NCBI GenBank assembly: GCA_902777645.1
Contig: CACYUZ010000014.1
Location: 1,296 to 65,295, forward strand
Reading direction: 5' to 3'
DNA: 64,000 bases
Source: an uncultured Prevotellaceae bacterium
GTDB lineage: Bacteria > Bacteroidota > Bacteroidia > Bacteroidales > Bacteroidaceae
This document shows positions 21,571 to 55,402 of the stretch, piece after piece. Position 1 is the stretch's first letter. Each line of letters starts with the position of its first letter. The notes beneath the pieces are model-generated. The model was not told the origin of the DNA and made no database searches. It saw nothing but the letters and a program-made list of their open reading frames with translations. A program made the position numbers and the translations under genes.

Positions 21571-22551
21571 CTACCAATCGTGCAGCAAAGCATCAACACA
21601 CGCCACGGCATTTGCCAATCGACATTCGTTTTTACCACGAATCACGGTATAGCTCAATCCTCGTGCCACGAGTTGGTCTTCACACTTCCGAAAGAAAGAT
21701 TCCCTTTCTTTCGGCCGATAGCGGTGGATGTCATCCACCCAGGGCAGATCGACATCAAGCAGCAGATAATGGTTGAAATGCTGCCTGGCGATGTATTCCT
21801 CAATAAGGGGTGACTCTTTACCGAACAGTTCTTGTGACCATAGTTTGGAGATGATGGCGTCTGTATCCACAAATACCAACGGGGAGGGTTCTTTCAAGGC
21901 TGTCTCAACTGCATTGAAATGCCCTCTCACGATTCGTTCCATGTCGTCATAACAAATATCCCCGTTCTTTGCATCGATTACCTGCTTGGCGTACTCTTCC
22001 ACATAGGGCACATGATAGTGTTCGGCAAGCTGTTTGGTCAGTGTTGATTTTCCCGTCGATTCCGGACCATAGACGCAGATTGTTTTACGGAGATCGTTCT
22101 GCGCTGCCGGTGCCAGGTATTTCCACCGGCCTATGAGGTCTTGACGGATTTGTGTAGCTGAGACCGGAACGGTGGACCTGTCAGAATCCACCATCACGAA
22201 ATCTGCCGACAGTTCTTTTGCCAACCGCGCCCCGTATTGCTCTGAGGCAAAGACCGCATCAACAGGACGCGGGAGCAGGCGCAACAATTCCTCGCGCCAG
22301 ATATCCCAAAAGCGAGGGGTCTCCGAGGGGTCCTGCGGAAGGGGGTGGCTTTGTGTCAGCACTATGGCTGACGGATATTGTTGCTTCACCCATTTTATGC
22401 GCCGCTCAACGGGTATTACATCATCCATGATGTTGTCGACGACAACATAAACGATGTCGCTGGCATCGAGAGCGCGCTGGATGAGCAGCATGTGTCCTCT
22501 GTGCAACGGGCAAAACTTTCCCAATACGAAACCCGTATTATAATGCTTCAT
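21571..22551 (-). CDS. NadR-like bifunctional protein: HxGH nucleotidyltransferase (NMN adenylyltransferase fold) plus a P-loop ribosylnicotinamide-kinase-like domain
   Basis: Start chosen at MKHYNTGFVLGKFCPLHRGHMLLI, which carries the (H/T)xGH motif. The P-loop is VYGPESTGKSTL. It overlaps the NRPS-like stop by 14 nt. AT-rich like the four upstream genes. The track start at 22617 is also ATG, so the start is uncertain. Confidence 0.7.
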   Translation of the reverse strand: MKHYNTGFVLGKFCPLHRGHMLLIQRALDASDIVYVVVDNIMDDVIPVERRIKWVKQQYPSAIVLTQSHPLPQDPSETPRFWDIWREELLRLLPRPVDAVFASEQYGARLAKELSADFVMVDSDRSTVPVSATQIRQDLIGRWKYLAPAAQNDLRKTICVYGPESTGKSTLTKQLAEHYHVPYVEEYAKQVIDAKNGDICYDDMERIVRGHFNAVETALKEPSPLVFVDTDAIISKLWSQELFGKESPLIEEYIARQHFNHYLLLDVDLPWVDDIHRYRPKERESFFRKCEDQLVARGLSYTVIRGKNECRLANAVACVDALLHDW

Positions 22552-25402
22552 AAGATTGGCTGATATATAGTTTGATAAGTTCTTTATCCGGCTGGCACCG
22601 TATTGAAGTGCAGGCATGGGTATTGGTCATATCGAACCGGATGCCTGTAGTTTGAAACAGGTCCATATACCTCATTTGTTTGAAAAGCGCTGGGTCCATC
22701 CGGCAAATTGCCATGCGCAGAGCCTGCACATCGGGATGGCCGGCAAAATGGCTGGCCTTCTTCTGCCATTCTTCATAGGCTATAGTGCCGCTGATGACGC
22801 CTTTTTCCTTCATGACCATGCAAAGGTCGTTATATTTCAACGGCATTTCCGACGCGATATGATAAACACCCGGTCGGTTGCGGCTTATGATGTCTGCCAC
22901 GGCATGTACCGCTTTATCGATAGGCGTGATGTCCACTGCCATGGAATCCGACGCATCATAGGGAAGCACGCCCACTGTCCCCGCTCCCCGCAAGAACATG
23001 CCGAGAAAATCTTTAGGAGCTGACTTGCCCTGAATGGTGTCGCCGCACAGCAGGCCATAACGATAGATGAACACATCACACCCATCGGGACGAATGGACT
23101 GAACCATCTTCTCGGCAACGTATTTAGACTGTCCATATCCCCCATAAATGTTGGTTGCAATACTCAAATCGTCGTTCTCATACACCGTACCACGATTCCT
23201 GTCGGTAGATACGAAGACAGAAAGCGTGGAAGCATAGTGCAGGACTTTTCTGGCACCCGTCAGGCAAAAATCGATGATGTTTCTTGTGCCGGTGACATTG
23301 GCTTCCTTCAGCATGTCATAATTTGCCAGCATATTGACAACGGCTGCGCAGTGGAGCACAGTGGTCACTTCTTCAGAAAGCCGCCTGTAGACATCTGTTG
23401 AAAGACCAAGGCAAGGTTGGGTGATATCGCCACAAACTATCTCTACGTTCATCAGTGAACGGGGGGCGAGACCATATCTGAGAAAGGTTTCTCTGATTCT
23501 TTCTTTTCCGTTTTCGGGCGACGTGCATCTTACCAGGCATCTTATCTTTTCGCCCTGCTCCCTGGCCAATAATTCACCAAGCAAGTGTGAACCCAGAAAG
23601 CCGGTTGCCCCCGTCACAAGCATTGTGCTTGCCGCAGTGTCAGCAGGCTTAGCCATGCCAGGGGGGCAGGAGTACTGCCACTCACCCTCAAGATGGGAGG
23701 AGTGTGTGCACATAGAGGTGCTTTCAATGCCCATCCGGGCCAACTGTCGCGGGGTAGGACACTGATGAATTTCGTCGGCCGTAACGGCTATGCCCAACTG
23801 CTGTAACTTTGCTATCAACAGGATGGTGTCGAGCGAATCACCGCCGCACTGGAAAAAATCTTCGTCTGGGCCAAAGGATGGAAGTTTGAGGATGTCTGAC
23901 ATCACATGCGCGATGGTTTCTTCCTCTTTTGAGGCATATTGATAGGCTGACTGTGCTGACTGAGAGCACTTGAGCGGGATTGTGAGAAGAGCCTGCAGGT
24001 CTGTTTTCCCTGATGGGGTGAGCGGCATGGAACTGACCAACTCAATGAAAGTAGGAACCATCCATTGGGGAAGATGGTGCTTGCAACAAAGCCGAAGCTG
24101 TTGTTCCATATCGCCCAAGGCTACCCGGTTGTCCACGGGCTGTATAAAGGCTACAAGAGCGTTTTTTGTGTTCGACGGGCCAACGGGTCTCTTGACGACA
24201 GCCACCTTACCGACATTCCTGACACAGCGGAGCACATGCTCAATCTCTTCCAGTTCTACAAGTTGTCCACGTATCTTCACCTGACGGTCCAGCCTTCCGA
24301 CAAACTCCAACTTGCCGTTGCGGTTGATGCGCACATGGTCTGATGTCCTGTAATAACGTTTGCCATCGACGACAGGAAACTTTCTCCGCGTCAGTTCTTC
24401 GTCCTTGTAGTATCCTATGGCTAAGCCGACACCTGAAATCCACAACTCGCCATTCTCTGCATCCAACCGCCCGTTTGAATACACGTAATAATGCGTTCCA
24501 TCGATGACGTCGCCCAAAAGGGGGGAGTCCCATTGAGTGTCACACTGGCACAGGCTGGTACAGACGGTTGCCTCTGTTGGGCCGTAGACATTTATCAGTC
24601 TGAGTCGGCGGCTCCAACGTCTCACGGTTTCTATGTCGGCCGGTTCACCGCCAATGACAATGGTCTGCAGACAGTCAGGGCATTTCTCCGGACTCAGCAT
24701 CCGCAATAGTGAAGGAGGAATGTCGGTATGTGTCACGCCATGCTTTCTCACCACCTCAAACAACATGGCCGACAGTTTTTCCCCTTGCACTGGTTCTATG
24801 ACAAGGGTGGCGCCAGATGTCAAGGTAACGAGGATATCGGAGATGGAAGCATCGAAGTTGACAGACAGGAAGAACAGGTAACGCGAATCATGATTCACAC
24901 AAAAGGCCTGGCGTTGGCACCGGGCCAGGTTGCAGAGTCCGGAATGCCCCACAAGAATGCCTTTGGGCTTACCCGTTGTTCCAGAACTGTAGATGATGTA
25001 AGCTGGATTGTCGGGCCGGCACGGGGCTATGGTTGCTGCCATGGGGCACGACATGGTGTCGCGAAAGGTGTCCTCGTCTATACAAAGCGTGATATCGGCA
25101 TGGCCGGAAATGAATTTCCGGCGGGATGGAGGCAAATCAGTGCCTATAGGGGCAAATGCTTTCCCCGACATCCAGCAGCCTATCATGCTGATGATATAGG
25201 CTGTGGATTTGGGCAGGTTGATTCCTACGAAGCAATTGCACCCACTGTGCCGGTTGATGTATTCTGCCACCTGCAGGGCTTGCCGCCAAAGTTGCTGATA
25301 GGTGAGCACGCTGTTGTCTCCTTCCGCCACTGCGGCATGATGGGGATAAGCCTCGCAGATTCCGTGCAGCACGGCAAGTATGTCATCGCTGTTTATGTCC
25401 AT
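22538..25402 (-). CDS. Stand-alone NRPS-like enzyme: adenylation, thiolation and thioester reductase domains (A-T-R)
   Basis: 954 aa. A-domain core motifs are LTYQQL, AYIIYSSGTTGKPKG, FDASISD, NVYGPTEAT, GELWISGVGLAIGYY, YRTSDH, GRLDRQVKIRG, LPQWMVP and PLTPSGKTD. The carrier motif is FFQCGGDSL. The reductase shows VTGATGFLGSHL and YGQSKYVAEK. No condensation domain is present. Confidence 0.9.
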   Translation of the reverse strand: MDINSDDILAVLHGICEAYPHHAAVAEGDNSVLTYQQLWRQALQVAEYINRHSGCNCFVGINLPKSTAYIISMIGCWMSGKAFAPIGTDLPPSRRKFISGHADITLCIDEDTFRDTMSCPMAATIAPCRPDNPAYIIYSSGTTGKPKGILVGHSGLCNLARCQRQAFCVNHDSRYLFFLSVNFDASISDILVTLTSGATLVIEPVQGEKLSAMLFEVVRKHGVTHTDIPPSLLRMLSPEKCPDCLQTIVIGGEPADIETVRRWSRRLRLINVYGPTEATVCTSLCQCDTQWDSPLLGDVIDGTHYYVYSNGRLDAENGELWISGVGLAIGYYKDEELTRRKFPVVDGKRYYRTSDHVRINRNGKLEFVGRLDRQVKIRGQLVELEEIEHVLRCVRNVGKVAVVKRPVGPSNTKNALVAFIQPVDNRVALGDMEQQLRLCCKHHLPQWMVPTFIELVSSMPLTPSGKTDLQALLTIPLKCSQSAQSAYQYASKEEETIAHVMSDILKLPSFGPDEDFFQCGGDSLDTILLIAKLQQLGIAVTADEIHQCPTPRQLARMGIESTSMCTHSSHLEGEWQYSCPPGMAKPADTAASTMLVTGATGFLGSHLLGELLAREQGEKIRCLVRCTSPENGKERIRETFLRYGLAPRSLMNVEIVCGDITQPCLGLSTDVYRRLSEEVTTVLHCAAVVNMLANYDMLKEANVTGTRNIIDFCLTGARKVLHYASTLSVFVSTDRNRGTVYENDDLSIATNIYGGYGQSKYVAEKMVQSIRPDGCDVFIYRYGLLCGDTIQGKSAPKDFLGMFLRGAGTVGVLPYDASDSMAVDITPIDKAVHAVADIISRNRPGVYHIASEMPLKYNDLCMVMKEKGVISGTIAYEEWQKKASHFAGHPDVQALRMAICRMDPALFKQMRYMDLFQTTGIRFDMTNTHACTSIRCQPDKELIKLYISQSYEAL

Positions 25403-26132
25403 ATAATATCATGCTTGGATGGTCTTCATCGTAGTCTGAAAGAGCGATGTCACCATAAACCTGTTCTACCATCAGTCCATAACGCAGAAACATGGCCCGG
25501 AATTGTTCTACGCTGTAGAGTTTTGTCTGTCCGAAAGCCGTTTCACGGTGACCATCTGGATAGACTATAAGCCAATCTGATTTCATCATGCCGTCCTCTA
25601 TCCAGCTCTCTCGTATTGTAATGATGGTACTGTCGCCCGAAGGCACCTGTTTGACAATGAACCGCTGGAAATGTTTGTTGATGAACAGTGGATTCATGGT
25701 GGAGAAGAAGAACTGCCCGCCAGGCTTCAGGTTGTTGCTAAACGCGAGCAGCATCTTTTCATTAAGGTCATCATCCTCGTGATAGCCGAAACTGGTGTTC
25801 CAATTGATGCAGATGTCGTATTGCTCTGGACGGAGGAATGTCTCCGCATCACCCAACACAAATTCGGCGTGGGCAGAAGCAAGATGTTTTTCTGCATATT
25901 CTATATAAGGCGTGGAGATGTCGATGCCCGTGACCTCAAGTCCCGCCTTATCCAGTTCATGCGACAGGTAGCCCTTGCCGCAGCACTGGTCAAAAACTTT
26001 CATCCCCGGAAGCAACTGTCCTATCTGTTGCATGAAGTGCACTGTCTCTGCTGCCTGCTGGTTGAGCACCACCTCTGTAAAGTCGTTCTGAAAGAAGTCT
26101 ATCCACCATTTGTCGTTCTTGCCCGTTTTCAT
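25383..26132 (-). CDS. Class I SAM-dependent methyltransferase
   Basis: 249 aa. Motif I is VFDQCCGKGYLSHEL. It overlaps the NRPS-like start by 20 nt. Confidence 0.8.
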   Translation of the reverse strand: MKTGKNDKWWIDFFQNDFTEVVLNQQAAETVHFMQQIGQLLPGMKVFDQCCGKGYLSHELDKAGLEVTGIDISTPYIEYAEKHLASAHAEFVLGDAETFLRPEQYDICINWNTSFGYHEDDDLNEKMLLAFSNNLKPGGQFFFSTMNPLFINKHFQRFIVKQVPSGDSTIITIRESWIEDGMMKSDWLIVYPDGHRETAFGQTKLYSVEQFRAMFLRYGLMVEQVYGDIALSDYDEDHPSMILYGHKQR

Positions 26133-26136
26133 CGTT

Positions 26137-28062
26137 TCAGTTCATTAGTTTTTGATTCATATAATAAATAGTCAGCATAAGCATCAACACAGGCTCGTAG
26201 GCGGTCTGCTCCAACACACTCATGGAGGGAAGAGATACAAGCAGGTCCGTAACAGCAGTTCTGTTAAAGATGCCTGTTCCCATCAGACTGTCGGATGTCA
26301 GCTCATCGTAAATCCTTTCATACTCAGACTTGCTGAAATATCGGGTCAACGGAGGTGCTTGGAACGGATGTTTCTGTCTTCGATAGATACGGTCTGTAAT
26401 GTATGGGCGAGCTGCTTCCTTGAGCACATACTTCTCATTGATATAGTTCTTGATCTTCATCTGCATGGGCAGTTGGGCCGCATACTCAAAAAGTTTGTGG
26501 TCGAGGAAAGGCAGTCGTCCCTCAACCGAGGCCGACATCTCACAGCCATCGCCAAGAGTACCGAGTATATAGTTGCTGAGCGCATGTTTATTCCACAGAT
26601 AGAGTGACTTGTTTACGGGATGTACATCCCGAAGTTTGGTCTCTATCCGGTGATGTGTGGCCATTTCGTCCATGAAATCGTAGTTGTCACAACTGCGGAG
26701 CATGTCAGGATGGAGCAACCGGTACATTTTGTGTCCTATGCTGGCCTTGGCTGCCAGAAACGACGGGACAAAGCCCAGCCGTTCGGCCATCTTGTCACAA
26801 CTGAGCGTATCGCCTACTGCGATTTCCGTTCCCGTTATGGCAAGATTCGTTTGGTAGAGTTGGCTGGTAAGTGCTTCTTTTTCTTCTGCCGGCAACATGG
26901 AGAAAAGATCTTTTCGCAGGTGGGGATAGCCGGCCAGGCATTCGTCGGCACCTTCGCCAGTCTGCGCCACTTTGAACCCAGCCTCGTGGATGGCCTTGTT
27001 AAGGAGGTATTTGCATGACAGATGACCGTTTACAGCCAGTCCCTCACTGTGAAAGACTGCTTCCGGAAGATAGTGGAGAATGTCGTGCTGGCTTACTTCT
27101 ATTCTGTGCAAGACAGCCCCGCAGTGGCTGGTGGTCTCTGTGGCGAAGAGATTCTCGTCGTATTCGTCGCCCGTCTGAGGGAAAACGATAGAGAAACAAT
27201 GAACCGGCTCGCTGGTCATGGCAGACAGGATACCTGCAACGGAACTGGAGTCGAGCCCGCCACTGAGATGACAGCATACCGGCACATCGCCCTGAAGCCG
27301 CAGCTGAATAGCCTGCTGCAGGCAGGCGCGATATTCATCCACATACTGTTGCTCCCTTCTTGGTGTGAGCTGCTCCTCATCGCAGCCGGAAGGATAGTTC
27401 ATGTCCCAATAAGTGATGTCCTTCCTCCCGCAACCGACTTGCCATACAAGCAGATGGCCAGGCTCCAACTGCCGTACGCCCTTGAAAAAGGTGCGGTCTG
27501 TTGGTTGGTACTGTATCGACAGTGCCTGCATCAGACTGTATTCATCCCATTCGGACTTTACACCACAGGCGTGGATGGCTTTTGCTTTCGATGCTATAAT
27601 CACTCGTCTGCCATCATCCCACCAACACAAGGGTTTGATGCCGAAGCGGTCACGTCCTGCTACCAGCAAGCGCTCCCTTTTGTCATACAGGATGAAGGCA
27701 AACTCGCCTCTCAGGTGTTCCATCATACCCTCGAGGCCATACTTCAGATAGAGGGGTATCAGCAGCTCGCTGTCGGAATCGGTCTGGAAGGCATAGTCGG
27801 AAGAAAGCGTCTGTCTCAGTCTTTTATAGTCGTAAAACTCTCCATTGACCACAATGATCACCCTTCCATCAGGAGAACTGATGGGTTGGTGTCCGTGCCG
27901 CACACCGACAATGGACAATCGCCTGTGGCCCAAGGCTACGTTTTGGTATTGCCACATGCCGCAGTCATCAGGACCGCGTAGTTTCAGCGTGTCGAGCGCT
28001 GCCGACAGACTGCCTGCATCCGGCATGGCCTCGCGGTCGAGAATTCCTACTATTCCGCACAT
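26137..28062 (-). CDS. Asparagine synthetase B-type glutamine amidotransferase
   Basis: 641 aa. The N-terminal nucleophile is in MCGIVGILD and the PP-loop is CCHLSGGLDSSSV. It overlaps the upstream dehydrogenase stop by 13 nt. Confidence 0.85.
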   Translation of the reverse strand: MCGIVGILDREAMPDAGSLSAALDTLKLRGPDDCGMWQYQNVALGHRRLSIVGVRHGHQPISSPDGRVIIVVNGEFYDYKRLRQTLSSDYAFQTDSDSELLIPLYLKYGLEGMMEHLRGEFAFILYDKRERLLVAGRDRFGIKPLCWWDDGRRVIIASKAKAIHACGVKSEWDEYSLMQALSIQYQPTDRTFFKGVRQLEPGHLLVWQVGCGRKDITYWDMNYPSGCDEEQLTPRREQQYVDEYRACLQQAIQLRLQGDVPVCCHLSGGLDSSSVAGILSAMTSEPVHCFSIVFPQTGDEYDENLFATETTSHCGAVLHRIEVSQHDILHYLPEAVFHSEGLAVNGHLSCKYLLNKAIHEAGFKVAQTGEGADECLAGYPHLRKDLFSMLPAEEKEALTSQLYQTNLAITGTEIAVGDTLSCDKMAERLGFVPSFLAAKASIGHKMYRLLHPDMLRSCDNYDFMDEMATHHRIETKLRDVHPVNKSLYLWNKHALSNYILGTLGDGCEMSASVEGRLPFLDHKLFEYAAQLPMQMKIKNYINEKYVLKEAARPYITDRIYRRQKHPFQAPPLTRYFSKSEYERIYDELTSDSLMGTGIFNRTAVTDLLVSLPSMSVLEQTAYEPVLMLMLTIYYMNQKLMN

Positions 28063-28955
28063 GTTTTGAAGAAAATCTTTTTACTTCCTATACGCTCTGC
28101 TTCTGCAAAGGCCGTTTCAAATTGGGAAAGGTCATAGGTATTCCCAAACAGTTTGTCCGTATCGAGGGTGTCAGTCACATGGTTGGCAGCTGCCGTCAGA
28201 ATATGGCTGGCCACATTGAAGTCTCCATATCGTGCCCCTTGTATGCATATCTCCTTCATGGCAATGGCATTTGCCGTAAAAGAACTGGGAGAATAGGACC
28301 GGGATTTCACCACCAGCACTCCATTGGGTTTAAGTGCATCGACATAGGCATCGATATCAAAGGGTTCCGTTTCTATAATGCAGTCATAATGGTCTTTCTG
28401 CAAGTCGGCTGTTCGGGTTATTCTTTCAATGTCGCGATTACCCATCACCCTGGCCACCTGGCAGGTCAGTTCCGCTATTCTGTTCCCGCCGTATATGCAA
28501 GTCAGCCCATTTACATATTTCAGGGGGGCAAGTGCTGCCGCGACAGGTTCCAGGAAGGCACCGTAAGGTGAGAGCAGACTGGGTGGCAGGCATACCAACG
28601 CTCCGCTTGGAACGGCAATATACTCCGCAAATGCGCCGTCGCAGTCTTTGCCGCACATTTTGTCGCCCTTACTGCCAAATGACATAGGGTTGGCACTGAC
28701 CACATCGCCTATTCGCCAATGGCCCATCTCTTCTTTTCCATTCAAGAAGCCGACTATTTTCCCGCAAAACTCATGTCCAAGTATGACATCTTCTTTGGCA
28801 GGAACGGCACCTTTTCTTATGGCGATGTCGGTTCTGCAAATTCCTGCATAATAGACCTTTACAAGTACATTGTAAAGACTTGTCAGTTTGGGAATATCCC
28901 TGTCAACTTTATAGACAGCTGACCCTTGGTTGAGTATGATAGCTCTCATTTTCAT
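28050..28955 (-). CDS. Short MDR-family zinc-type alcohol dehydrogenase/oxidoreductase
   Basis: 301 aa. Catalytic-zinc ligand contexts are AGICRTD and GHEFCG. The nucleotide-binding glycine motif is degenerate (IYGGNRIA) and the structural-zinc lobe is shortened. Confidence 0.7.
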   Translation of the reverse strand: MKMRAIILNQGSAVYKVDRDIPKLTSLYNVLVKVYYAGICRTDIAIRKGAVPAKEDVILGHEFCGKIVGFLNGKEEMGHWRIGDVVSANPMSFGSKGDKMCGKDCDGAFAEYIAVPSGALVCLPPSLLSPYGAFLEPVAAALAPLKYVNGLTCIYGGNRIAELTCQVARVMGNRDIERITRTADLQKDHYDCIIETEPFDIDAYVDALKPNGVLVVKSRSYSPSSFTANAIAMKEICIQGARYGDFNVASHILTAAANHVTDTLDTDKLFGNTYDLSQFETAFAEAERIGSKKIFFKTCAE

Positions 28956-28991
28956 CGTATATTCTAAGGTCCATCATTCATCCATTCATTC

Positions 28992-29462
28992 TCAAAAGGG
29001 AAGGAGATGCGCCGTTTTCAAGCGCTTGAGTGCCTGGAGAAGAATCTTCTCATGGTCGAAGGCCAGTTGCGGGATGCTGCTGATGGGAAACCACTGCGCA
29101 CACCTCGCATCGTCGCTGCCTTTGACAGCCGCTTTCTGCACCAGAGCGTAAAAGGCGATGGAGATGACTCGTCCGCGCGGGTCGCGGTCCACGTCGGAGA
29201 AACAGCCCAACTGTTCCAGGGCACCTTTGTCCACGTCAAGCCCCGTCTCCTCTTTCAGTTCGCGGGCGGCACCGTCGTCTGCCTTCTCGTCCATATTCAA
29301 GAATCCGCCGGGAAACGCCCAGCGCCCCTTATAGGGGTCGGCGCCGCGTTCAATCAGCAACACCGAAAGTCCTCCTTTTAAATCATAACCAAATACCACA
29401 CAGTCGGTCGTCACTGCGGGACGGGGATACTCATAGGTGTATAATTTGTTTTTATCTTCCAT
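28992..29462 (-). CDS. NUDIX hydrolase (ADP-ribose pyrophosphatase/NrtR-N-terminal-like)
   Basis: NUDIX box [24 protein letters not shown]. The N-terminus [15 protein letters not shown] is typical of ADPR-pyrophosphatase-type NUDIX proteins. Start chosen at MEDKNKLY (29462); the track start is 29549. GC is host-like, unlike the operon 36 nt downstream. Confidence 0.8.
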
Positions 29463-29669
29463 TATTTGCCAGTTTAATGGGTTGGATTTCATCCGACCTT
29501 TTCTTGCCACGGCAATGTTCAAACAGGTTTGACATTGCTCATCCGGCATATCGGAAACGATTTCTTTTCATTGCCTTCATCTTATGATGACGATATTACC
29601 GAGATGGTTGTCTACTTCTTCTCATAGTTAAAATGCTGTGTTGTATTGTTATGTTGTGTATTTTTTACG

Positions 29670-29677
29670 CAAAGGTA
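29670..29677 (-). promoter_or_regulatory. -7 promoter box (TACCTTTG on the minus strand), candidate promoter for the NUDIX gene and the downstream operon
   Basis: Plus-strand CAAAGGTA is the reverse complement of TACCTTTG. A second candidate, CAAAAATA, lies at 29751-29758. Both sit in the AT-rich divergent spacer. Confidence 0.35.
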
Positions 29678-29836
29678 GAGTTTTATTTTGTAATCCGCAA
29701 ATCTTTCTGCGTATTTTTTACACAATAAATGATTTTTTCTTTTTGTTTTACAAAAATAGTGCATTCCCACCAATTCTCCACACTTTTTCAGCAACATTTT
29801 TTATATAAAATATTTGCAGTTTTTATGCAGAAAAAC

Positions 29837-29844
29837 TAACTTTG
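29837..29844 (+). promoter_or_regulatory. -7 promoter box (TAACTTTG) upstream of the hut operon
   Basis: Matches TAnnTTTG, about 100 nt upstream of the ftcD ATG at 29945. Confidence 0.4.
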
Positions 29845-29944
29845 CAGCATAAAGCCTTTTGAGGCTATTTTTCAGGTGGTTCACCTGAATGAGCAGAACA
29901 CACCACTACTTGACATATAACCTAAATAATACGATAAAAACACA

Positions 29945-31654
29945 ATGAAAAAGCAAATTATCGAATGCGTGCCCAACTTCAGCGAGGGCCGCGACCCTGC
30001 AGTCATCAAACAGATTACCGATGAGATAGAGCGCGTGAAAGGCGTGAGCCTGCTCGATGTGGATCCCGGCGAGGCCACCCACCGCACCGTGGTGACTTTC
30101 GTGGGTGAACCCGAACCTGTGATGGAGGCCGCCTTCAGGGCAGTGCGCAAGGCCGGACAAGTCATCGACATGCGGCAGCACCATGGTGCCCATCCCCGCA
30201 TGGGAGCTACCGATGTACTGCCCCTGATACCCGTGAGCGGCATCACCCTGGAAGAGTGCGCCCAACTGGCACGCACCCTGGCACGCCGCATAGCCGACGA
30301 GCTGCGCATACCCACCTACTGCTACGAGGCGGCCGCACAGATTCCCGAGCGGAAGAACCTGGCCGTATGCCGCGAGGGCGAGTATGAGGCGCTGGCCGAA
30401 AAGCTGACCACACCCGGCAAGGAGCCCGACTTCGGCGCTCGCCCCATGGACGACGACATAGCCCGCACAGGCGCCACCGCAGTGGGTGCGCGCGACTTCC
30501 TGATAGCCGTCAACTTCAACCTGAACACCACGTCCACCCGCCGCGCCAACGCCATCGCCTTCGACGTGCGCGAGAAAGGACGGCCCAAGCGCGAGGGCGG
30601 TCTGCTCACCGGCAAACCGCTGAAAGACGCCGACGGCAACCCCATCATGCTGCCCGGCACCCTGAAAGGCACGAAGGCCATTGGATGGTTTATCGACGAA
30701 TACGGCATCGCCCAGGTGTCGATGAACATCACCGACATCAGACAGACACCGCTGCATGTGGCCTTCGACGAGGTGTGCCGCTGCGCACAGAACCGCGGCA
30801 TACGTGTCACCGGAACCGAGATTGTGGGCCTCATCCCCAAGAGCACCCTCATCGATGCGGGACGCTACTTCCTGGAGAAACAGCAGCGCTCCACCGGCAT
30901 ACCCGAGAAAGACATCATCGACATCGCCATCCACTCGCTCGGGCTCTCCGACCTGCGGCCTTTCCGCCCGGAGGAGAAAGTGATAGAGATGCTGCTGGAA
31001 AAAGACCACCAGAACGGCAGCAATCTGGCCGACCTGACCGTAAAGGACTTCGCCTATGAGACCTCGCGCGAGAGTCCCGCCCCCGGCGGAGGCACCATCG
31101 CCGCCTATATGGGCGCACTGGGCGCCGCACTGGGCACCATGGTGGCCAACCTGTCAAGTCACAAGCGCGGATGGGACGACCGCTGGGAGGAGTTCGCCCG
31201 CCACGCCGACAACGGACAGGCCCTCATGAGCCAGCTCATAGCACTGGTGGATGAAGACACCCAGGCCTTCAACCGCATCATGGAGGCCTTCGGCATGCCC
31301 AAACAGACCGAGGCCGACAAGGCCGCACGCTCCGCCGCCATACAGGCCGCCACCCTCTATGCCGCCGAAGTGCCCCTGCGCACCATGCAGGCCGCCAGCC
31401 AGGTGTTCGCCTTGTGCCGCGCCATGGCCGAGACCGGCAACCCCAACAGTGTGAGCGACGCCGGTGTGGGTGCCCTGGCTGCCCGTGCCGCCGTGCTGGG
31501 CGCCGGACTGAACGTGAAAATCAACGCCGCCTCGCTGAAAGACCGCGACAAGGCTGCCCAGCTGATTGGTGAAGCCGAACAGCTGATGTGCCGGGCCGAC
31601 GAGGAGGAACGCCAGATAATGGCCATTGTAGAAAAAGTAATCAACGCACAATAA
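29945..31654 (+). CDS. ftcD: Bifunctional glutamate formimidoyltransferase / formimidoyltetrahydrofolate cyclodeaminase
   Basis: 569 aa. The N-terminus ECVPNFSEGRD is typical of formiminotransferases. The helical C-terminal roughly 200 aa are cyclodeaminase-like. First gene of the hut cluster. Confidence 0.88.
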   Translation: MKKQIIECVPNFSEGRDPAVIKQITDEIERVKGVSLLDVDPGEATHRTVVTFVGEPEPVMEAAFRAVRKAGQVIDMRQHHGAHPRMGATDVLPLIPVSGITLEECAQLARTLARRIADELRIPTYCYEAAAQIPERKNLAVCREGEYEALAEKLTTPGKEPDFGARPMDDDIARTGATAVGARDFLIAVNFNLNTTSTRRANAIAFDVREKGRPKREGGLLTGKPLKDADGNPIMLPGTLKGTKAIGWFIDEYGIAQVSMNITDIRQTPLHVAFDEVCRCAQNRGIRVTGTEIVGLIPKSTLIDAGRYFLEKQQRSTGIPEKDIIDIAIHSLGLSDLRPFRPEEKVIEMLLEKDHQNGSNLADLTVKDFAYETSRESPAPGGGTIAAYMGALGAALGTMVANLSSHKRGWDDRWEEFARHADNGQALMSQLIALVDEDTQAFNRIMEAFGMPKQTEADKAARSAAIQAATLYAAEVPLRTMQAASQVFALCRAMAETGNPNSVSDAGVGALAARAAVLGAGLNVKINAASLKDRDKAAQLIGEAEQLMCRADEEERQIMAIVEKVINAQ

Positions 31655-31668
31655 AACCCCATCCTGCC

Positions 31669-33684
<2,016 letters not shown>

Positions 33685-33717
33685 CCACTATCCACAAACA
33701 CACACATCAGCCATACT

Positions 33718-35211
33718 ATGACCAAAACACATTATATCAGTGCGGGACACCTGACACAGGACAAGATAGACCGCATCATCAACGAAGGCTACCGGCTGGA
33801 ACTGGGCGAGGAGGCCAAGAAGAGCATCCTGAGCTGCCGCGAATACCTGGACCACAAGATAGCCGAGAGCGAGGCGCCCATCTACGGCGTGACCACCGGA
33901 TTCGGCTCGCTCTGCAACATCAGCATCGGCAACGACCAACTGGCCGAGCTGCAGAAAAACCTCGTCATGTCGCATGCCTGTGGCGTGGGCACACCCGTGC
34001 CCCGTGAGGTGGTGCGCATCATGCTGCTGCTCAAGGTGCAGTCGCTGAGCTACGGCCACTCCGGCTGCCAGCTGGTCACCGTGCAGCGGCTCATCGACTT
34101 CTTCAACTACAACATCTGCCCCATCGTCTATGAACAGGGCTCAGTAGGCGCCAGCGGCGACCTCGTTCCCCTGGCCCACCTGTGCCTGCCGCTGCTGGGA
34201 CTGGGCGAGGTGGAATATCAGGGACAGCGCATGACGGGTGCCGAGATACTGGCCAAGATGGGATGGGAACCCATTCAGTTGGCCTCGAAAGAGGGACTGG
34301 CCCTGCTCAACGGCACCCAGAACATGAGCGCCTTCGCCGTGTGGTCGCTCATACAGGCCAAGCGTATCACCCAGTGGGCCGACGTGATAGCCGCCCTCTC
34401 GCTCGAGGCCTACGACGGCCGGCCGGAGCCGTTCAACCTGGCCGTGCATCTGGTGCGGCCCCACAAGGGACAGATTGCCACCGCCGTGCGCATCAACGAA
34501 CTGCTGCGCGGCAGCGAACTGATAACACGCCCGAAGACCCATGTGCAGGACCCCTACTCCTTCCGCTGCATACCCCAGGTGCACGGGGCCGTGAAAGACA
34601 CGCTATCCTATGTGAAGTCGGTGGTGGACATCGAAATCAATGCGGCCACCGACAATCCCACCATCTGTCCCGAAGAAGACCTCATCATCTCGGCCGGCAA
34701 CTTCCACGGTGAGCCGATAGCGCTGCCCATGGACTTCCTGTGCATCGCCATGAACGAGCTGGGCAGCATCTCCGAGCGCCGCACCTACAAACTGGTGTCG
34801 GGCACCCGCGGCCTGCCCAGTTTTCTGGTGGCCACACCGGGTGTGAACAGCGGTTTCATGATCACCCAATACACCTCGGCCGCCATCGTGAGCCAGAGCA
34901 AGACGCTCTGCATGCCTTCCTCGGCCGACAGCATACCCACCTCGCAGGGACAGGAAGACCATGTGAGCATGGGCGCCAACGCCGGCACCAAACTGCTGCG
35001 CGTGATGGAAAATACGGAGCGCGTGCTGGCCATCGAACTCTTCAACGCCGCCCAGGCGCTCGACTTCCGCCGTCCGCTGCACACCTCGCCTCTGTTGGAG
35101 GAAATCCATGCCGCCTACCGCAAGGAGGTGCCGTTTATCGACCACGATGTGGTGATGTATCCGCACATCGCCAAGTCGGTGGAGTTTCTCCGTAAATACC
35201 CACTCGAATGA
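33718..35211 (+). CDS. hutH: Histidine ammonia-lyase
   Basis: 497 aa. The MIO-forming Ala-Ser-Gly motif is present in GSVGASGDLVPLAH. Confidence 0.95.
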   Translation: MTKTHYISAGHLTQDKIDRIINEGYRLELGEEAKKSILSCREYLDHKIAESEAPIYGVTTGFGSLCNISIGNDQLAELQKNLVMSHACGVGTPVPREVVRIMLLLKVQSLSYGHSGCQLVTVQRLIDFFNYNICPIVYEQGSVGASGDLVPLAHLCLPLLGLGEVEYQGQRMTGAEILAKMGWEPIQLASKEGLALLNGTQNMSAFAVWSLIQAKRITQWADVIAALSLEAYDGRPEPFNLAVHLVRPHKGQIATAVRINELLRGSELITRPKTHVQDPYSFRCIPQVHGAVKDTLSYVKSVVDIEINAATDNPTICPEEDLIISAGNFHGEPIALPMDFLCIAMNELGSISERRTYKLVSGTRGLPSFLVATPGVNSGFMITQYTSAAIVSQSKTLCMPSSADSIPTSQGQEDHVSMGANAGTKLLRVMENTERVLAIELFNAAQALDFRRPLHTSPLLEEIHAAYRKEVPFIDHDVVMYPHIAKSVEFLRKYPLE

Positions 35212-36539: not shown

Positions 36540-39500
36540 TTATCTTGTCAGCGAGAATTTCAGGCTCAGGCCGAAGTCGCGGGTGGTGGTGGGATAGCTG
36601 TTGGCCGAGAGGAGCGGCGTATTGGTCTGCTGGTCGTAATAGAAAGTCATGGTCATGAGTTTCGACAGCGTATAGTCGGCCGAGAAGGAGAACTTCAGCG
36701 CTGTATTGCCACTGGAGGCAGAGCTGGTCATAGAGGCGATGTCGCGGGTGATGTTGGCCTGCTGCCGGTAGGAGAAGTCAAAGCGCAGGTTCAGGTCATG
36801 GTTGAAGGAGCCCTTGCCGTTGCGGTTGTTATTGGTATTCTGGTTCTTCGACGCATTCTCGTCATTGTCGCCCGCATTCTTCTTTCCGCCCTTCACCTTG
36901 CGGTGCGACGTGCCGCCACCGCCGAAGAGTTTGAAGTCGTTTATCTTATAGCCCATACCGATGACCCAGTCCTTGCTGGTGGTCTCGTTGAGCTGCACAC
37001 TCGTCATACTGAGGCTGAGCTGGCGGGTGGTCTTGTACTCCAACTTGCAGGTGAGGTTGTTGTTCAGGGTCACATCCACACCGAGCAGCGGGGCGAAGTT
37101 CTCCGTAAGGCTCACCGTCGATACATTGAACATGCTGTTGGGCACCGGATTGCCGGTCGTGGCGTCGGTGATGAATCCCAGGCCGCCGGTCGACTCCATC
37201 CAGGTGCTGTAGCTGGCGTAGGAGCCCACCGCATAGAGACACTTGTACGAATGGTTCAGATTCACGCTCTTGAAGAGCGAGCTGAACCAGGGCAGGCGGC
37301 CCAGTCCGCTGTAGCGTACGGTCCAGTTGGGCAGCAAGCGGCTCAGTGTGGGGAAGATGTCAAGACTGCCGCCGCCCATGCTGGTATAGCTGGACAGGAA
37401 GGCAGGCACGAGCACATCGGCGCTGTAGGCCCCCACCCCACCGTTTTCGGGATTGAAGGTCTTTCCGGCCAATGCCGTTCCCTGCGGGTAGACCGTATTG
37501 GCGTACCGCGCCTCTACCCGCTCGCGGAAGGCGGGCAGTGACTGGCAGAACTTCTCGAAGGTCTTCGAGGAGTAGCCGTTGTTGGCGTCGCCGCTGCTGG
37601 CAAAGGCCGTCTTGATGGCGATGGTGGTCATATTGAAGGAGCCGCTCTGTGTGGTGGGGTTGCCGGCATACATATACTGCACGCTCTTGGACTTGGTGAC
37701 ATTGCGCGAGGCATTGAGGTCAATCTTGAAGTCGCGCACCGGCTCAAGGGTCATTTTGAGCTGCAGGTCTTCGGTGAGGCTCGTGGTGGCAGGGGTGGCC
37801 ACACTTTCGTTGGAGAGGAGCCATCCTCTCTCGCGGGCCTTTTCGATATAGTCGTCGTCGATGAGTCCGAATCCGAAGTCGAGGCCCGGCGCCATGATGT
37901 CGCCCCGCCGCTGTCCGAAGGCATTGCCGATGGTGGGCATGAATCCGGGCAGACCCATGGAATACTGGTTGCGGTACGACAGGCTCACATTGCGCACCAT
38001 CATGAGCACGCGTGCCACGCTCTGTGCGGTGCGGTACCATCCCTTCTCGTCGAGCGGTTCCTTGGGGGTGACGGTGATTTTGAACTTCAGTGTCGAGTCG
38101 GTGGGGTTGTACACCTGAATCTTGTTGTCGTCCAATTTCTTGTACCGGATGTGTATGGGCTTGCCGTCGAGTGTCTTAGCGGAGAACTCAAAGCGCTTGG
38201 TCTTCTTGCCGTGGGTGATGACCATCGAGGTGTCGGCCTTGATGGTAATCTCTTTCTCGAAGCTCTTCTTGTTCTTGGGCAGATTGGCCTTGGGGTCCTT
38301 GCCCTTGTTCTTGGCGTCGCCTTTTCCCTTGGCATCGTCCTTTCCGTCACCCTCTTTGGCACCTGCCTTGGTCTCCGGGGTCTTCTTGGGATTCTGTACC
38401 TTGTTGTTTACGGCCTTCTTGGGCTTGCTCTTGCTGAAGCGGTCGTTGGTGGCCTTGAGGAAGGGCACGTGGTCGTAGAGTTTCTGCAGGTTGAAGGAAC
38501 CGTTCAGATTGTAGTTGCGCTTGGTGGAGATGGAGTTGCCCAGCGAGGTACCGTCCTCAAGGTCGGTGCCGCGCACCCATCCATAGGTGCCGTTGTAGGA
38601 GGCATCCACATTCACCCAGTCGAAGATGGGTATCAGGTTGAGCGGCAACTTGTAGGAAGCCGATACAGTCTGGCTGTAGTCGAGGGGGGCGCCCCAGTTG
38701 CGTATGGAGGTCCACACAGAGTCTTTCCAAGCATCATACTGGTCGGGATAGAGGTCTTTGTTGATGGGGGTATAGGGCTCCTCTATCTCGGCATGGGTGG
38801 CGCTTTGGAAGTTGAAGTGCAGGTTCTTGGTGAGGTCCCAACGGAAAGAGAACTCCCTGTTCCAGAGGAACTGCTCGCTGAAGGTGAGCGGCAGCTGCGA
38901 ATCTTCGAGGCTCTCCATATCGCGCTCCTGCAGCTCGTAGTAGTTGCGCATGATGTCGGTATTGAACGTGACGTTCTGCGGCAGCCAGTTGAGTCCGAAG
39001 CGTTTCAGTATGTCGTAGTATTTCGACTTGCTCTTGATGAGTTTCTTGAAGGGTTCCCATGCCTTGAACACCGGTGTCCAGGTATAGGCCAGTGAGCCGC
39101 GCCACTGGTCCTCGTTCTCATACACGGTGGTCTCGCCGCTGGTGTTGCGGTGCGAGTGGCTGTAGGAGAAGGAGAAGTTGGCCGGGTCGTAGGGCATGGG
39201 GTGTCCTTTGGTCTGTATGCCCACCCTCACGCCGGTGAGCGAGAAGTTGGTGTCGGTGGTCTTGCTCACGGCTATCGACTCGATGGAGTCACGCTCATGG
39301 CGGCTGGCTCCCTCGAGCGCATCGTCGAGGAGCATGTCGGTGTCGAGCGGGTTGTACTTGGGGCTCTTGCGCTCCTTGGTGACCGAATAATAAAGGGGTG
39401 CCGACACCTTGGCCTTTTCGGGGAAGAATTTGCCCAGTTCCAAAGTGGTGGTAAGGCTGGCGTTGAGTTTGTTGTCGGTGCTGCGCTGGCTCACGCCTTC

Positions 39501-42500
39501 CTCGAGGCCGCCGAAGCCGTCCGACTCATACTTGCCGGTGACATTGACGGAGCCGAAGTCGGACAGCTGCACATTGAGGTTGCCCTGTGCGGCCCAGCCG
39601 CCCTCGTTGTCGTACTCCTTGAGTCGGAGCTCGTTGACCCACACCTCGCCCGACTTGGGGTCGGCCGAGAGGTTGCGCACACCGATAATCATGGTCTTCA
39701 CCTCACCGAGCGAGGGGTTACCCATCACGCTGATGCGGTTGGCCGGATTGTCCTCGTCGTAGGAGGTGAAGAGCTGGTTGTAGGAGGCGTTGCCCTCGGC
39801 CTTGGCCTTGTTGCGCTCCTTCTTCACGGCGGTGAACATGGAGAGGGGTATGTCGAGCATGTTCTCCTCCGGCCACACGATGCGCTTGTCGTTGGCGGAG
39901 TATTTGTCGTAGTGGCCCGCCGGAGTGAGCTTGAGGGGCACCTCATACTCATAGTAATTGCTCTTGTAGTCGCTGCCCAGTCGCACGAACACCGCCAGCT
40001 GGTTGTCGGTCAGGTTGGTGGCATTGTCAATCGTGTGGTTGGCATGCACGAACATCTGCAGGCGGCGGTACTGGCGCAGGTCGAGGTTGGTGTTCTTGAA
40101 CACGGCCTTCGACTCGCCGGTGCCCAAGTTGCTCACCACCATGTTGAGGGCCTGCTCGTTGCTCTCCACCAATTGCGGCTGCGTGGGGTCCTGCACACGC
40201 GAGATGCCCGGCGGCAGGATGTAGTTGACGGGTTCCTTGTCGTTGTTCTCCTCGATGTTGACGGTGCTCACCGACATATAGCCCGAGTTGGAGGCGCTGT
40301 TGGTGAGGTTCTGGGTATAGACGCGCCACTCGCCGCGCACCAGGTCTAAGCTGCCGAAACGGAGCACGATGGGTTTCTCGAATCCGGTAAGGAACATGCG
40401 CATGAAGCGTATGGAGGTGAAGTCGTTGATAGCGCCCACCCGCTGCTCAAACTGGTCGATGGGGATGCGGAACTGATACCAGGTCACGTCGTAGTGGTCG
40501 CCGTTGCGCAGGGTACCGGAGCCCACGCGGCTGTCTACGATGAAGTTCTGTCCCACCACGAGGTCTTCCGGGCGGATAGAAACGTGATACTGGTAGTATT
40601 TCTCATACTCATTGAGCGTGAAGTCCTGGTTGATGTCCTCCACATCGGGAGTGGTCTTGTACGAGGTGTCGTAACTCTCGGTGCGCGTATCAGAGTCGGG
40701 GCTGTTGCCCTGCGGGTTGTTGATGCGCTTGTAGCGGTGCTGGATAGAGGCCTGTATCTGGTCGAAATCGGAACCGCGGAAGTAGTGGTAGTCGTCGTTG
40801 GCGGGGTCGTTCATGATACTGTCGAACACCTCGGGGGCCACCTTTCCCTGAATGGCGGTAAGGAATTCCTGGTACGACTCGAAGGTGCGTTCCTCCTCGT
40901 CGGTGAGGCCGTTGAAGCCCACATCCTGCCTCTCGCGCGAGCCGGAGGTGGTGGCGAAGGCATAGGCCGTGTTGGCCGCCTTGACAGGTATTTTTCCCCA
41001 CTGTGTGTAAGTGAAGCTGCTGGAGCCGTCTACCGGCATACCGTCCTCGTAGAATTTCTTGCCGTCGTGGAGTACATCCTCGCTCACCTCGCCCAAGTTG
41101 ATGTAGAAGTCGCCGCCATACTGCTGGGCGTCGGGTTTGTCCTTGGTGTAGATGAAGGGGTCGAGCATCCAGAACTCGATATACTCGATGTTGGCCATCT
41201 CGAAGTCGGGATTGTCGAGTTTGCGCATCATGCCGCCCCACTTGGCAGCGGGGTTGTTAAGGGTACCGTCGGCATTGAGGTCGGGGTTGAAGTTGTAGGG
41301 GCCGCGCTCGGAGGGATAGTAGGCGAGGTTGAGCACCGGCAGTGTGGAGGTGGCGCCGCTGTAGCTGCTCTGGTCGCGGTTGGGATAGAGCTCGCGCACG
41401 AAGACCTCGCGCACATAGTGGTTGGAGAGCTGGTTCAGGTCGCTCTTGATGTGTCCGGGTGTGAGCGACGAGCTGCGGCGGGTGAAGAGCGGGTCGATGG
41501 TATACCACGACAGGAGGCTTCGGTTGTAGCCGCTGGCCAGGGTGGTCTTGTCCTTGTATTCGCTGAACATGGTGGGCACGCTGGAGATAATCCATGAGGT
41601 GGGGGCCGACATGTCGTAGGCGTTCTTGCTGTTTTCGAAGTCGTCGAGATAGGAGGCGTTGTCCTGGGTGCCGTGGCTCTGTCCGGCCAGCAGTTGGGCG
41701 AACTCGGCCTTGAGCGAGATGTTGGAGGGCTGCGTCACGTGCAGGAAGGGCACGTAGTTGAGCATATTGGTGAGCCACTGGCTCTCTTTCTTCCAGTTGA
41801 GGTTCACACCCCAGAGGGTGTTGTTGAGAGGTTCGGAACCCATGGCCACCTTGGTGGTGAGCGCCTGCTCCGACAGGTGCTGGAAGGTACCGCTCATCTG
41901 GAAGTCCTTGGTGAAGTCGTACTCCCAGTTAACGCCCACCATCGTCTTTCGGGCCTGTCCATAGTCGGTGTTGCTCTCATACGAGGCGCTCACCGGCGTG
42001 TTGGCATCCAGGATGCTCTGGTTGATGACGGTCACCTCGCCGGCCGAATAGTCGACGGTATAGTCGGTGCCCTCAGTCAGGGTGACACCGCCCGCGGTGA
42101 CCACCACGGAGCCCTGCGGCACATTGTAGGCACCGAGCGAGATGACATTTGACGCATTGCCGCGATACTGTCCCATGAGCATGTACTTGTCTTTCTCGGC
42201 TATCTGCTTGGCCACGGTCTTGGTGGAGTCGTAGAGCTCAGTAAAAGCATATTTCTGCGCCGTGGCCAGGTCTACGCCCTTTGACACGAGAAACTTGAGC
42301 ATGAAGTCGCCGAAGGGTTCCGCCTTGGGCAGGAACACACGTCCTCTTGACACGGTGTAGCCTTCCACATAATCGAAATAGCCGTTGGAGTGCACCTTCA
42401 TGTTGTTGTCCAGACGGTCGGCATCGATGTCTTTGATGATGGTCTGGTTCTTCACCTGGGGCTCGGGTATATAAGTAATGTATACGCCGGCCGTATCGCT

Positions 42501-54103: not shown

Positions 54104-54131
54104 TAGTACAGTAGGATTTTGGTTTATGTTG

Positions 54132-54139
54132 CAAATTTA
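54132..54139 (-). promoter_or_regulatory. -7 promoter box (TAAATTTG on the minus strand) upstream of pepC
   Basis: Plus-strand CAAATTTA, 29 nt upstream of the ATG at 54103. Confidence 0.5.
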
Positions 54140-55378: not shown

Positions 55379-55402
55379 CCCCCACGAAAAATCATTCGCA
55401 TC

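Follow-up and report, generated by a model that had tools for sequence, protein, structure and literature searches.

A candidate mobile biosynthetic cassette that links an NRPS-like thioester reductase to a NadR-like enzyme

We analysed a 64,000-nt stretch of DNA from an uncultured Prevotellaceae bacterium (GenBank assembly GCA_902777645.1, contig CACYUZ010000014.1, positions 1,296 to 65,295; hereafter the window). Within it, five tightly packed genes on the minus strand (21571-28955) encode an alcohol dehydrogenase (ADH)-like protein, an AsnB-type amidotransferase, a methyltransferase (MT), a nonribosomal peptide synthetase (NRPS)-like protein composed of adenylation, thiolation and reductase domains (A-T-R), and a NadR-like protein. 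The five genes are inherited together, and in several lineages the A-T-R and NadR-like proteins are physically fused. The explanation that we tentatively prefer, with reservations given below, is that the block is a horizontally mobile, self-contained biosynthetic unit, extended by a NUDIX gene in the window copy, and that its product may be an ADP-linked, NAD-like molecule made from a reduced, amidated and N-methylated amino acid. Functional statements that go beyond domain identity are inferences throughout.

Homologues of the A-T-R protein with 39-98% full-length identity were found in metagenome-assembled genomes (MAGs) of Prevotella, Paludibacteraceae, Bacteroidales and Alphaproteobacteria, and in one labelled Clostridium. 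The initial annotation had described an orphan cluster and proposed a synteny search; the five genes turned out to recur together across Bacteroidales and other phyla, and the cassette is not an orphan but a family present in about 20 unrelated contexts in several phyla and on phage contigs, with the order ADH-like/AsnB/MT/A-T-R/NadR-like mostly kept. Contig look-ups placed the cassettes in unrelated housekeeping neighbourhoods, and a metagenome scan with further look-ups added more contexts (L016-L019, L021, L023-L025, L096, L097 and L139). These contexts derive from MAGs and metagenome contigs, and their taxonomic labels may be wrong. The rumen MAG RUG446 contains the same locus with the same flanks at 97-98% protein identity. 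When each of the five proteins was compared with its window copy over eight loci, the identity values co-varied (Spearman 0.90-1.0), and this congruent divergence shows that the cassette was inherited as a block. The ADH-like family is sizeable, not huge: among 1.84 billion cluster representatives at 50% identity, a threshold of E<=1e-30 yielded 65 relatives and one of E<=1e-10 yielded 524.

The NadR-like protein is the most informative partner in the cassette. Its gene had at first been treated as a passenger, but the natural variants contradict that view, as the protein is fused to A-T-R in several lineages and split into nucleotidyltransferase and kinase genes elsewhere. Fusion of A-T-R to the full NadR-like protein was observed in Prevotella (P0016, P0021 and L008; 1314-1330 aa) and in a second type represented by L013, P0113 and P0115 (1290 aa), and the L010 fusion joins A-T-R to just the kinase half (1109 aa). 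In Alphaproteobacteria, the NadR-like gene lies upstream on the opposite strand and its kinase half is degenerate, and a separate 170-aa kinase with a conserved DVPWVDD motif follows A-T-R; thus both the nucleotidyltransferase and the kinase activities appear to be retained. The fusions, the split kinase and the conservation of motifs together indicate that the NadR-like enzyme forms an integral part of the cassette.

The NadR-like protein consists of an N-terminal HxGH nucleotidyltransferase domain (CTP_transf_like) and a C-terminal P-loop kinase domain (AAA_28). It aligned end to end with solved NadRs (9x6f, 8x7f, 6gye and 1lw7) at 30-35% identity and matched phrog_3462 at 2.9e-66. The catalytic motifs GKFCPLHRGH (HxGH), VSATQIR (SxTxIR), GPESTGKST (Walker A) and VDTD are conserved in 110-112 of the 120 closest homologues. 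Nevertheless, the protein failed two tests for NadR. It scored 249.2 bits with TIGR01526 (NadR), under the equivalog cut-off of 341.15 (NF005988, 149 vs 201), and its nicotinamide-recognition loop is different. In Bas30_86, the phage NadR of the NARP3 pathway, the loop EDDIPEYPNGW contains Y86 and the mutated residues E80, P84 and G89 (PMC13464706). At this site the window protein reads LPQDPSETPRFW, PQDPSETPRFW; in the alignment E80, P84, Y86 and G89 are replaced by P, S, T and F, respectively, and the Trp alone is conserved. The pattern PQxPxE..F[WF] was found instead of E..YPxGW in 113/120 closest homologues, and the versions on phage contigs (L095 and L098) and in L024 are closer to canonical NadR in the loop region. 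We therefore use the label NadR-like rather than NadR. Because the recognition loop has diverged and the TIGR01526 score is below the equivalog cut-off, the clade likely has a specialised substrate. We also considered the NadR-like protein as a stand-in for phosphopantetheine adenylyltransferase/dephospho-CoA kinase that supplies the carrier domain, and rejected this, since it would not replace a phosphopantetheinyl transferase.

The A-T-R protein has the domains and motifs of an NRPS-like thioester-reductase module. It scored 245.4 bits with the thioester reductase model TIGR01746 (cut-off 213.35), and no condensation domain was matched in Pfam or NCBIfam. It belongs to none of the curated equivalogs MxcG, AusA and Lys2: MxcG and AusA were the best whole-protein NCBIfam matches, far under their cut-offs (MxcG, 403 bits vs 2300), and the Lys2-type TIGR03443 gave 244 bits vs 1030. 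Reductive release of an aldehyde or alcohol from the aminoacyl thioester is expected for such a protein.

The A domain appears to be an ordinary amino-acid-activating domain, and its closest solved neighbours in the PDB are LgrA, TycA and GrsA. Its score with TIGR01733 was 298 bits, just below the cut-off of 317. The translation contains LTYQQL, YSSGTTGKPKG, FDAS, NVYGPTE, GELWISGVGLAIGYY, GRLDRQVKIRG, LPQWMVP and PSGKTD, and the A7 motif, YRTSDH, is slightly off the consensus. An A domain with its core motifs and the Asp of FDASISD had been recognised from the start; apart from A7 this description stands, and both D235 and K517 are conserved. Extraction of the specificity code, also proposed in the initial annotation, gave D-A-S-D-V-G-V-V-C-K by alignment to the GrsA specificity segment, in which the standard positions yield the code published for GrsA itself. 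An exact copy of the code occurs in 92/121 family sequences, and the remainder differ by V/I changes only or, in one sequence, by V/A. Since the code is near-invariant, a common substrate is expected, and the whole family from Bacteroidota to Alphaproteobacteria should use it. The nearest published codes, which we take to be those for Gln (DAQDLGVVDK) and Glu (DAKDLGVVDK), with Tyr (DASTVAAVCK) less close, may point to a long and polar side chain, as a first lead.

The remaining three proteins would provide tailoring chemistry. The AsnB-type protein matched Pfam GATase_6/7 and Asn_synthase and scored 406.5 bits with TIGR01536 (cut-off 267.1). Its Cys2 nucleophile (MCGI) and PP-loop (SGGLDSS) are intact, and it should convert a carboxylate to a carboxamide in a glutamine-dependent manner; the closest solved structures are TsnB9 (7ylz, the best) and E. 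coli AsnB. The MT is a class I S-adenosylmethionine-dependent enzyme (Pfam Methyltransf_25/31/11). Of the solved proteins, 9ri2 and the cypemycin N-terminal (alpha-N) methyltransferase CypM (E 8e-10) come closest to it, and it weakly matched the daptide N-methyltransferase in NCBIfam. Because CypM, the nearest characterised relative, methylates an alpha-amine, the MT probably acts on nitrogen.

The ADH-like protein matched Pfam ADH_N, and ADH_zinc_N scored 21 bits, below its cut-off of 31.8. Its catalytic Zn ligands C40, H61, E62 and E136 are invariant across the family alignments, and the four-Cys structural Zn lobe is missing from the Bacteroidales members. In place of GxGxxG there is a loop YGGNRIAE, for which the family pattern is G-x-[NS]-R-[IF]-[AGS]. 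An AlphaFold2 model built from database homologues had a pLDDT of 94.9, and Foldseek aligned it with threonine, butanediol and polyol dehydrogenases (2d8a, 6ie0 and 4ej6) at TM-scores of 0.79-0.82. The model thus predicts a full two-domain fold of the medium-chain dehydrogenase/reductase (MDR) type that holds the catalytic Zn ligands.

Table 1 Features of the cassette and its upstream region in the window.
Feature	Position	Strand	Size	Remarks
Promoter motif of Bacteroidetes type, TTTG-N20-TACCTTTG	29670-29701	minus		Upstream of the NUDIX gene, in the 35%-GC intergenic region; probable operon promoter
NUDIX hydrolase gene	28992-29549	minus		Pfam NUDIX 1.1e-18; Nudix box intact; true start may be an internal ATG
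ADH-like gene	28050-28955	minus	301 aa	
AsnB-type gene	26137-28062	minus	641 aa	
MT gene	25383-26132	minus	249 aa	
A-T-R gene	22538-25402	minus	954 aa	
Adenylation (A) domain	24005-25357	minus		Pfam AMP-binding 1.4e-58 and AMP-binding_C
Thiolation (carrier) domain	23735-23917	minus		GGDSL; Pfam PP-binding 1.1e-12
Thioester reductase (R) domain	22562-23623	minus		GATGFLG and YGQSK; TIGR01746 and Pfam NAD_binding_4
NadR-like gene	21571-22551	minus	326 aa	

The positions of the genes are listed in Table 1. In open reading frame (ORF) coordinates, ADH-like and AsnB overlap by 13 nt, AsnB and MT are separated by a gap of 4 nt, MT and A-T-R overlap by 20 nt, and A-T-R and NadR-like overlap by 14 nt. 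The last overlap depends on the ATG at 22551, as the longest ORF begins at 22617; the N-termini of homologues (MKRYKTGFVLGKF...) favour the start at 22551. On these points the initial annotation was accurate: all its figures for the packing were exact, its five domain assignments were confirmed by Pfam and NCBIfam, and the catalytic motifs that it listed were present in the translations, in which we read MCGI, SGGLDSS, FDASISD, NVYGPTE, GGDSL, GATGFLG, YGQSK, GKFCPLHRGH and GPESTGKST. The five genes appear to form a single co-oriented, translationally coupled unit, and, judging from the spacing and one promoter motif, they are probably co-transcribed.

The operon in the window most likely has six genes, the first of which is the NUDIX gene, because this gene lies only 36 nt upstream of the ADH-like gene, a promoter motif of the Bacteroidetes type precedes it, and no such motif is found in the cassette. 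A pattern search for the promoter gave 5 matches in the window, where 0.38 were expected, and 0 within the cassette. Terminator-like matches inside the block (13) were not in excess of those in shuffled sequence (8.4 +/- 2.5). An Rfam scan of the window and nine cassette loci at gathering thresholds gave no riboswitch or leader, only tRNAs and one signal recognition particle RNA. An operon of five genes had originally been proposed; its description as one coupled unit holds, and its limits change, as the start is placed one gene earlier. The best NCBIfam matches of the NUDIX protein were the Nudix domains of NadM and NtrR (ADP-ribose type), all below the cut-offs. The NUDIX gene is also found in L001 and in L015, a rumen locus that is 75% identical, and most other cassettes are without it. 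In Paludibacteraceae, a 47-residue NUDIX remnant, 53% identical to the window's protein, lies directly upstream of the ADH-like gene (L003:6211-6348 and L004:6211-6348), suggesting that the association of NUDIX and cassette predates the Prevotellaceae lineage. A second motif of the Bacteroidetes type (29813-29844, plus strand) occurs in the same AT-rich intergenic region in the opposite direction, positioned so that it could drive the formiminotransferase-cyclodeaminase, urocanase and histidine ammonia-lyase genes (29945-35211).

The base composition of the block differs from that of its surroundings. The G+C content is 0.508 in the five-gene block vs 0.584 in the remaining window, and the clearest compositional signal is the G+C at third codon positions (GC3), which is 0.49-0.59 for the five genes vs 0.77 +/- 0.09 for 28 other long ORFs. 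The initial annotation had given 42-48% G+C inside the block and 58-73% in the flanks, with steps exactly at the operon boundaries. The step itself is real, but its size had been exaggerated (500-nt windows gave 0.456-0.544 within the block and 0.54-0.67 in the flanks), and the steps do not coincide with the boundaries: the right-hand one is at ~29900, not 28955, past the NUDIX gene and the 35%-GC intergenic region, and the left-hand one is gradual. The foreign-looking composition, in which a hint of horizontal acquisition had been seen, is upheld. In other hosts, the G+C content of the cassette ranges over 0.38-0.62 and is near that of at least one flank in most loci; exceptions are L014 (0.62 vs 0.52 and 0.48) and the left flank of L005. 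From its lower G+C content and GC3, the window's copy seems to have entered its high-GC Prevotellaceae genome fairly recently.

The window contains another compositional outlier, an ORF of 359 aa on the plus strand (54302-55378) with 51% G+C and a GC3 of 0.60, ahead of which a Bacteroidetes TTTG...TAnnTTTG motif is found at 54118-54151. The 2-kb bin 54001-56000 has the second-lowest G+C content of the window; the lowest is the bin 28001-30000, which holds the AT-rich intergenic region.

The surroundings of the cassette in other genomes are consistent with mobility. In three independent contexts tRNA genes abut the cassette (L008:3884-4133, L006:8853-9025 and L012:5098-5179), which would fit integration at tRNA sites, and the surroundings of L014 include integrases, a Dam-like methylase, ParB and a HEPN/MNT toxin-antitoxin pair. 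As for plasmids, a tblastn search of PLSDB gave only generic NRPS matches at <=30% identity.

The cassette was also found on two contigs that we assign to phages. The first, L095, is an 87-kb contig reached through a distant ADH-like homologue (P0240), in which the order is NadR-like/MT/ADH/AsnB/A-T-R and the neighbours include a T4-type portal gene and a family B DNA polymerase (phrog_262, E 2e-149). The frame of the portal gene (L095:796-2232, minus strand) is broken only by TAG codons and terminates at TAA; therefore, the element appears to be a TAG-recoded phage. The stops of its cassette genes are TGA in 4/5 and TAG in 1/5. The second, L098, is a viral contig from IMG/VR with the same cassette arrangement, and was the only one obtained by alignment-based scans of that database; single-protein scans gave none. 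A tblastn search of GenBank phages with AsnB and A-T-R gave only generic or contaminant matches, and the cassette was found in no isolated phage. In PADLOC-DB 2.0, A-T-R, AsnB, ADH-like and NadR-like had no match, and MT and NUDIX had generic matches only.

A further link to NAD metabolism was seen in L097. Next to this cassette (L097:1-6604) are genes for a 1158-aa protein with CN_hydrolase and NAD_synthase domains (NadE-like), a 658-aa protein like nicotinate phosphoribosyltransferase (NAPRTase)/Nampt and a fusion of NUDIX and phosphoribosyl pyrophosphate (PRPP) synthetase, a set that resembles an ADP-ribose-to-NAD recycling module. These genes lie amid many ORFs without family matches, and the contig may be a large mobile element or a phage. 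The links of the cassette to phages and NAD are suggestive, not universal.

Around the conserved core, the tailoring chemistry seems to vary. The MT is replaced by a 2-oxoglutarate-Fe(II) oxygenase in L010 and joined by one in L014 and L021, and a HAD hydrolase takes its place in L097. Two AT-rich lineages have carrier-less forms (L096:13539-16188 and L025:13447-15851), in which A and R are separate ORFs and no carrier motif was detected. A conserved pair of accessory proteins, ~640 aa and ~260 aa long, occurs with the cassette in four loci (L019:17331-20004, L014:2956-5689, L097:7161-9931 and L139:7291-9932), and the larger one alone in L010 (L010:3784-5661). Neither protein had a match in Pfam, NCBIfam, PHROG, PADLOC or the PDB, and the ~640-aa one had none even as a profile. 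Its motifs, GSGRA...KGE.TP...HG.WS.GNIS...DFDT, may resemble those of kinase-fold AMPylases of the SelO type.

Our tentative scheme for the pathway combines these predicted activities. The A domain would activate an alpha-amino acid whose side chain is long and polar and load it onto the carrier domain, and the R domain would release an amino aldehyde reductively. An amino acid is the presumed substrate because the A domain is nearest to LgrA, TycA and GrsA and retains D235 and K517, with a near-invariant code. The MDR dehydrogenase-like enzyme would then reduce the aldehyde to an alcohol or else adjust its oxidation state, the AsnB-type enzyme would turn a carboxylate into a carboxamide, and the MT would methylate the amine. 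Finally, the NadR-like enzyme may handle the alcohol as NadR does nicotinamide riboside, that is, the kinase half would phosphorylate it and the HxGH half adenylylate it, giving an ADP-linked, NAD-like small molecule. In this scheme the substrate, the order of the steps, the action of the NadR-like enzyme on the pathway product and the biological role are inferred. Part of the chemistry, from an amino acid to an amino aldehyde or alcohol that is then amidated or methylated, had been suggested in the initial annotation and is still plausible.

Several points weigh against the scheme. No experimental or curated support was found for any of its steps. A Gln-like substrate would seem to make the amidotransferase redundant. 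The cofactor of the ADH-like protein is uncertain, as its dinucleotide-binding loop is atypical. L023 has ADH, AsnB and A-T-R genes with no NadR-like or MT gene within the fetched locus, and no conserved transferase or exporter points to the destination of the product. In addition, the canonical-like loops in L095, L098 and L024, the NadM-type NUDIX and the NAD genes of L097 fit an ordinary role in the conversion of nicotinamide riboside or nicotinamide mononucleotide (NMN) to NAD.

Such a role, the most serious of the alternatives and still one that we doubt, would make the NadR-like protein a true nicotinamide riboside kinase/NMN adenylyltransferase in a cassette that rebuilds or protects the NAD+ pool. 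A precursor of the pyridine type would come from the other four enzymes or be modified by them, and the setting could be the conflict of phages with NAD+-depleting defence. The full-length similarity to solved NadRs, Bas30_86 among them, and to phrog_3462 agrees with this, as do the carriage of the cassette by the TAG-recoded phage contig with a T4-type portal and by the IMG/VR contig, the more canonical loops of the phage and L024 versions, the NadE-like, NAPRTase-like and NUDIX-PRPP synthetase genes that adjoin the L097 cassette, and the NadM/NtrR-like NUDIX ahead of the cassette in the window and L015, with its remnant in L003. On the other hand, the NAD-gene neighbourhood is seen at one locus and the NUDIX gene in a single lineage, the recognition loop is diverged in most bacterial copies, and the cassette has no phosphoribosyl- or ribosyl-transferase. 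By our own reasoning, there is no chemically sensible path with these enzymes from an alpha-amino aldehyde to the nicotinamide ring. De novo formation of the ring from asparaginal, glutaminal or ornithinal was considered separately and rejected by reasoning, as the substituent pattern is unfit and an enzyme for ribosyl transfer is lacking.

The comparison with NARP systems also bears on this alternative. In the NARP1/2 preprint, NadR is mentioned only together with PnuC. None of the defining pairs (Adps and Namat; Nampt and NMNAT-Nudix; PnuC and NadR) was found in the six-gene operon, which of such genes has only a NUDIX and a NadR-like one. The partners Adps/Namat, Nampt and PnuC are not adjacent to the window cassette, and no NARP partner was seen among its immediate neighbours, which are GH5, dynamin-like and hut genes, in a screen that for PnuC was not extended to the rest of the window. 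The largest ORF of the window, on the minus strand at 36540-44144, encodes 2535 aa.

A route of the Kennedy type, in which a methylated amino alcohol is phosphorylated and nucleotide-activated as a donor that decorates a lipid, glycan or protein elsewhere, is unlikely in our view. It shares with our preferred scheme the enzyme logic of an alcohol followed by a kinase and an HxGH nucleotidyltransferase, the MT is weakly similar to phosphoethanolamine N-methyltransferase (5wp4), and the accessory proteins beside the cassette in five loci could be the transferase. However, the Bacteroidales cassettes, the window's included, have no conserved transferase with them, the genomic contexts are not capsule, lipopolysaccharide or lipid loci, and phage carriage would be hard to explain.

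Returning to the ADP-linked product, a bolder version of our scheme, which we consider speculative and quite improbable, is that the pathway yields an acyclic mimic of NAD+, and that phages and bacteria use this molecule, or a related nucleotide of the NAD type, in their conflict over NAD+. A methylated or cationic nitrogen, a carboxamide and an alcohol are three features of nicotinamide riboside, and the proposed molecule would combine an ADP ester with a carboxamide and a nitrogen that is methylated and possibly cationic, a retargeted NadR having turned the alcohol into its ADP-linked dinucleotide. It could counter NAD+-cleaving immune effectors, as a decoy or an inhibitor, or be a NADase-resistant substitute, and would thereby explain the carriage by a TAG-recoded phage together with the adjoining NAD-salvage genes and NUDIX.

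Least probable of all is an ordinary secondary-metabolite cluster that makes a free amino aldehyde or a derived pyrazine or piperazine, as do PvfC, HqlA and the gut dipeptide-aldehyde clusters, with the NadR-like gene a mere neighbour: single-module A-T-R enzymes (PvfC and HqlA/LnaA) do release amino aldehydes that dimerise, and MxcG and AusA are the best whole-protein matches of A-T-R, albeit far below cut-offs, but the A-T-R/NadR-like fusions, the split and fused kinase variants, the conservation of NadR-like in almost every copy across phyla and phage and the congruent divergence of all five proteins speak against it.

A description of the gene combination was not found in the searchable literature, Rfam, PADLOC or curated protein families, in agreement with the first impression that no characterised pathway matches the gene set. 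What is new here is that an NRPS-like reductase cluster has an obligatory partner without precedent and is carried by phage. If our preferred scheme is true, it would be an undescribed use of NRPS-like chemistry, in which the released amino aldehyde or alcohol is passed to a NadR-type kinase/adenylyltransferase that in some cases belongs to the same polypeptide. A 7-kb biosynthetic cassette common to gut, rumen and marine bacteria and a recoded phage would represent a novel type of auxiliary pathway, and, through its links to NAD metabolism, the cassette is a candidate for a part in NAD+-centred immunity. Whichever reading holds, the five-gene unit with its natural variants (fused, split, carrier-less, and oxygenase- or HAD-substituted) is directly testable.

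Among known systems, the closest in architecture are the single-module A-T-R reductases, namely the terminal module of MxcG, Lys2, CmlP, PvfC, HqlA and the fungal ATRR glycine-betaine reductase. The cassette protein shares with them the domain architecture with no condensation-domain match, an A domain of the amino-acid type, GGDSL, a reductase of the short-chain dehydrogenase/reductase type with YxxxK, and the expected reductive release. It differs from them in its own near-invariant code and in its obligatory, sometimes fused, NadR-type partner, and we know of no described A-T-R system with a NadR-type nucleotidyltransferase/kinase partner. With NadR, including Bas30_86 (PMC13464706), the NadR-like protein shares the two-domain architecture and the HxGH, SxTxIR, Walker A and DTD motifs. 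Unlike NadR, the window protein has no helix-turn-helix domain, falls below TIGR01526, has the PQxPxE..F[WF] loop and no adjacent PnuC, and belongs to a reductase cassette in which it is embedded or fused.

The AsnB-type protein shares the class II glutaminase Cys and the PP-loop synthetase with AsnB paralogues that act on non-aspartate substrates (TsnB9, OxyD, DdaH and LtsA/AsnB1), and differs from TsnB9 in that the identity is low and the match spans residues 1-380 only; under NCBI's rule it would be named asparagine synthase. Phosphorylation of a primary alcohol followed by nucleotidylylation, sometimes by one bifunctional protein, is the logic of LicA/LicC (Kennedy pathway; choline), CobU (cobinamide, in the nucleotide loop of cobalamin), RibF and COASY. 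The likeness of these enzymes to the cassette is a functional analogy, as their kinase families differ from that of the NadR-like protein, and so do their transferases except for those of the HxGH superfamily.

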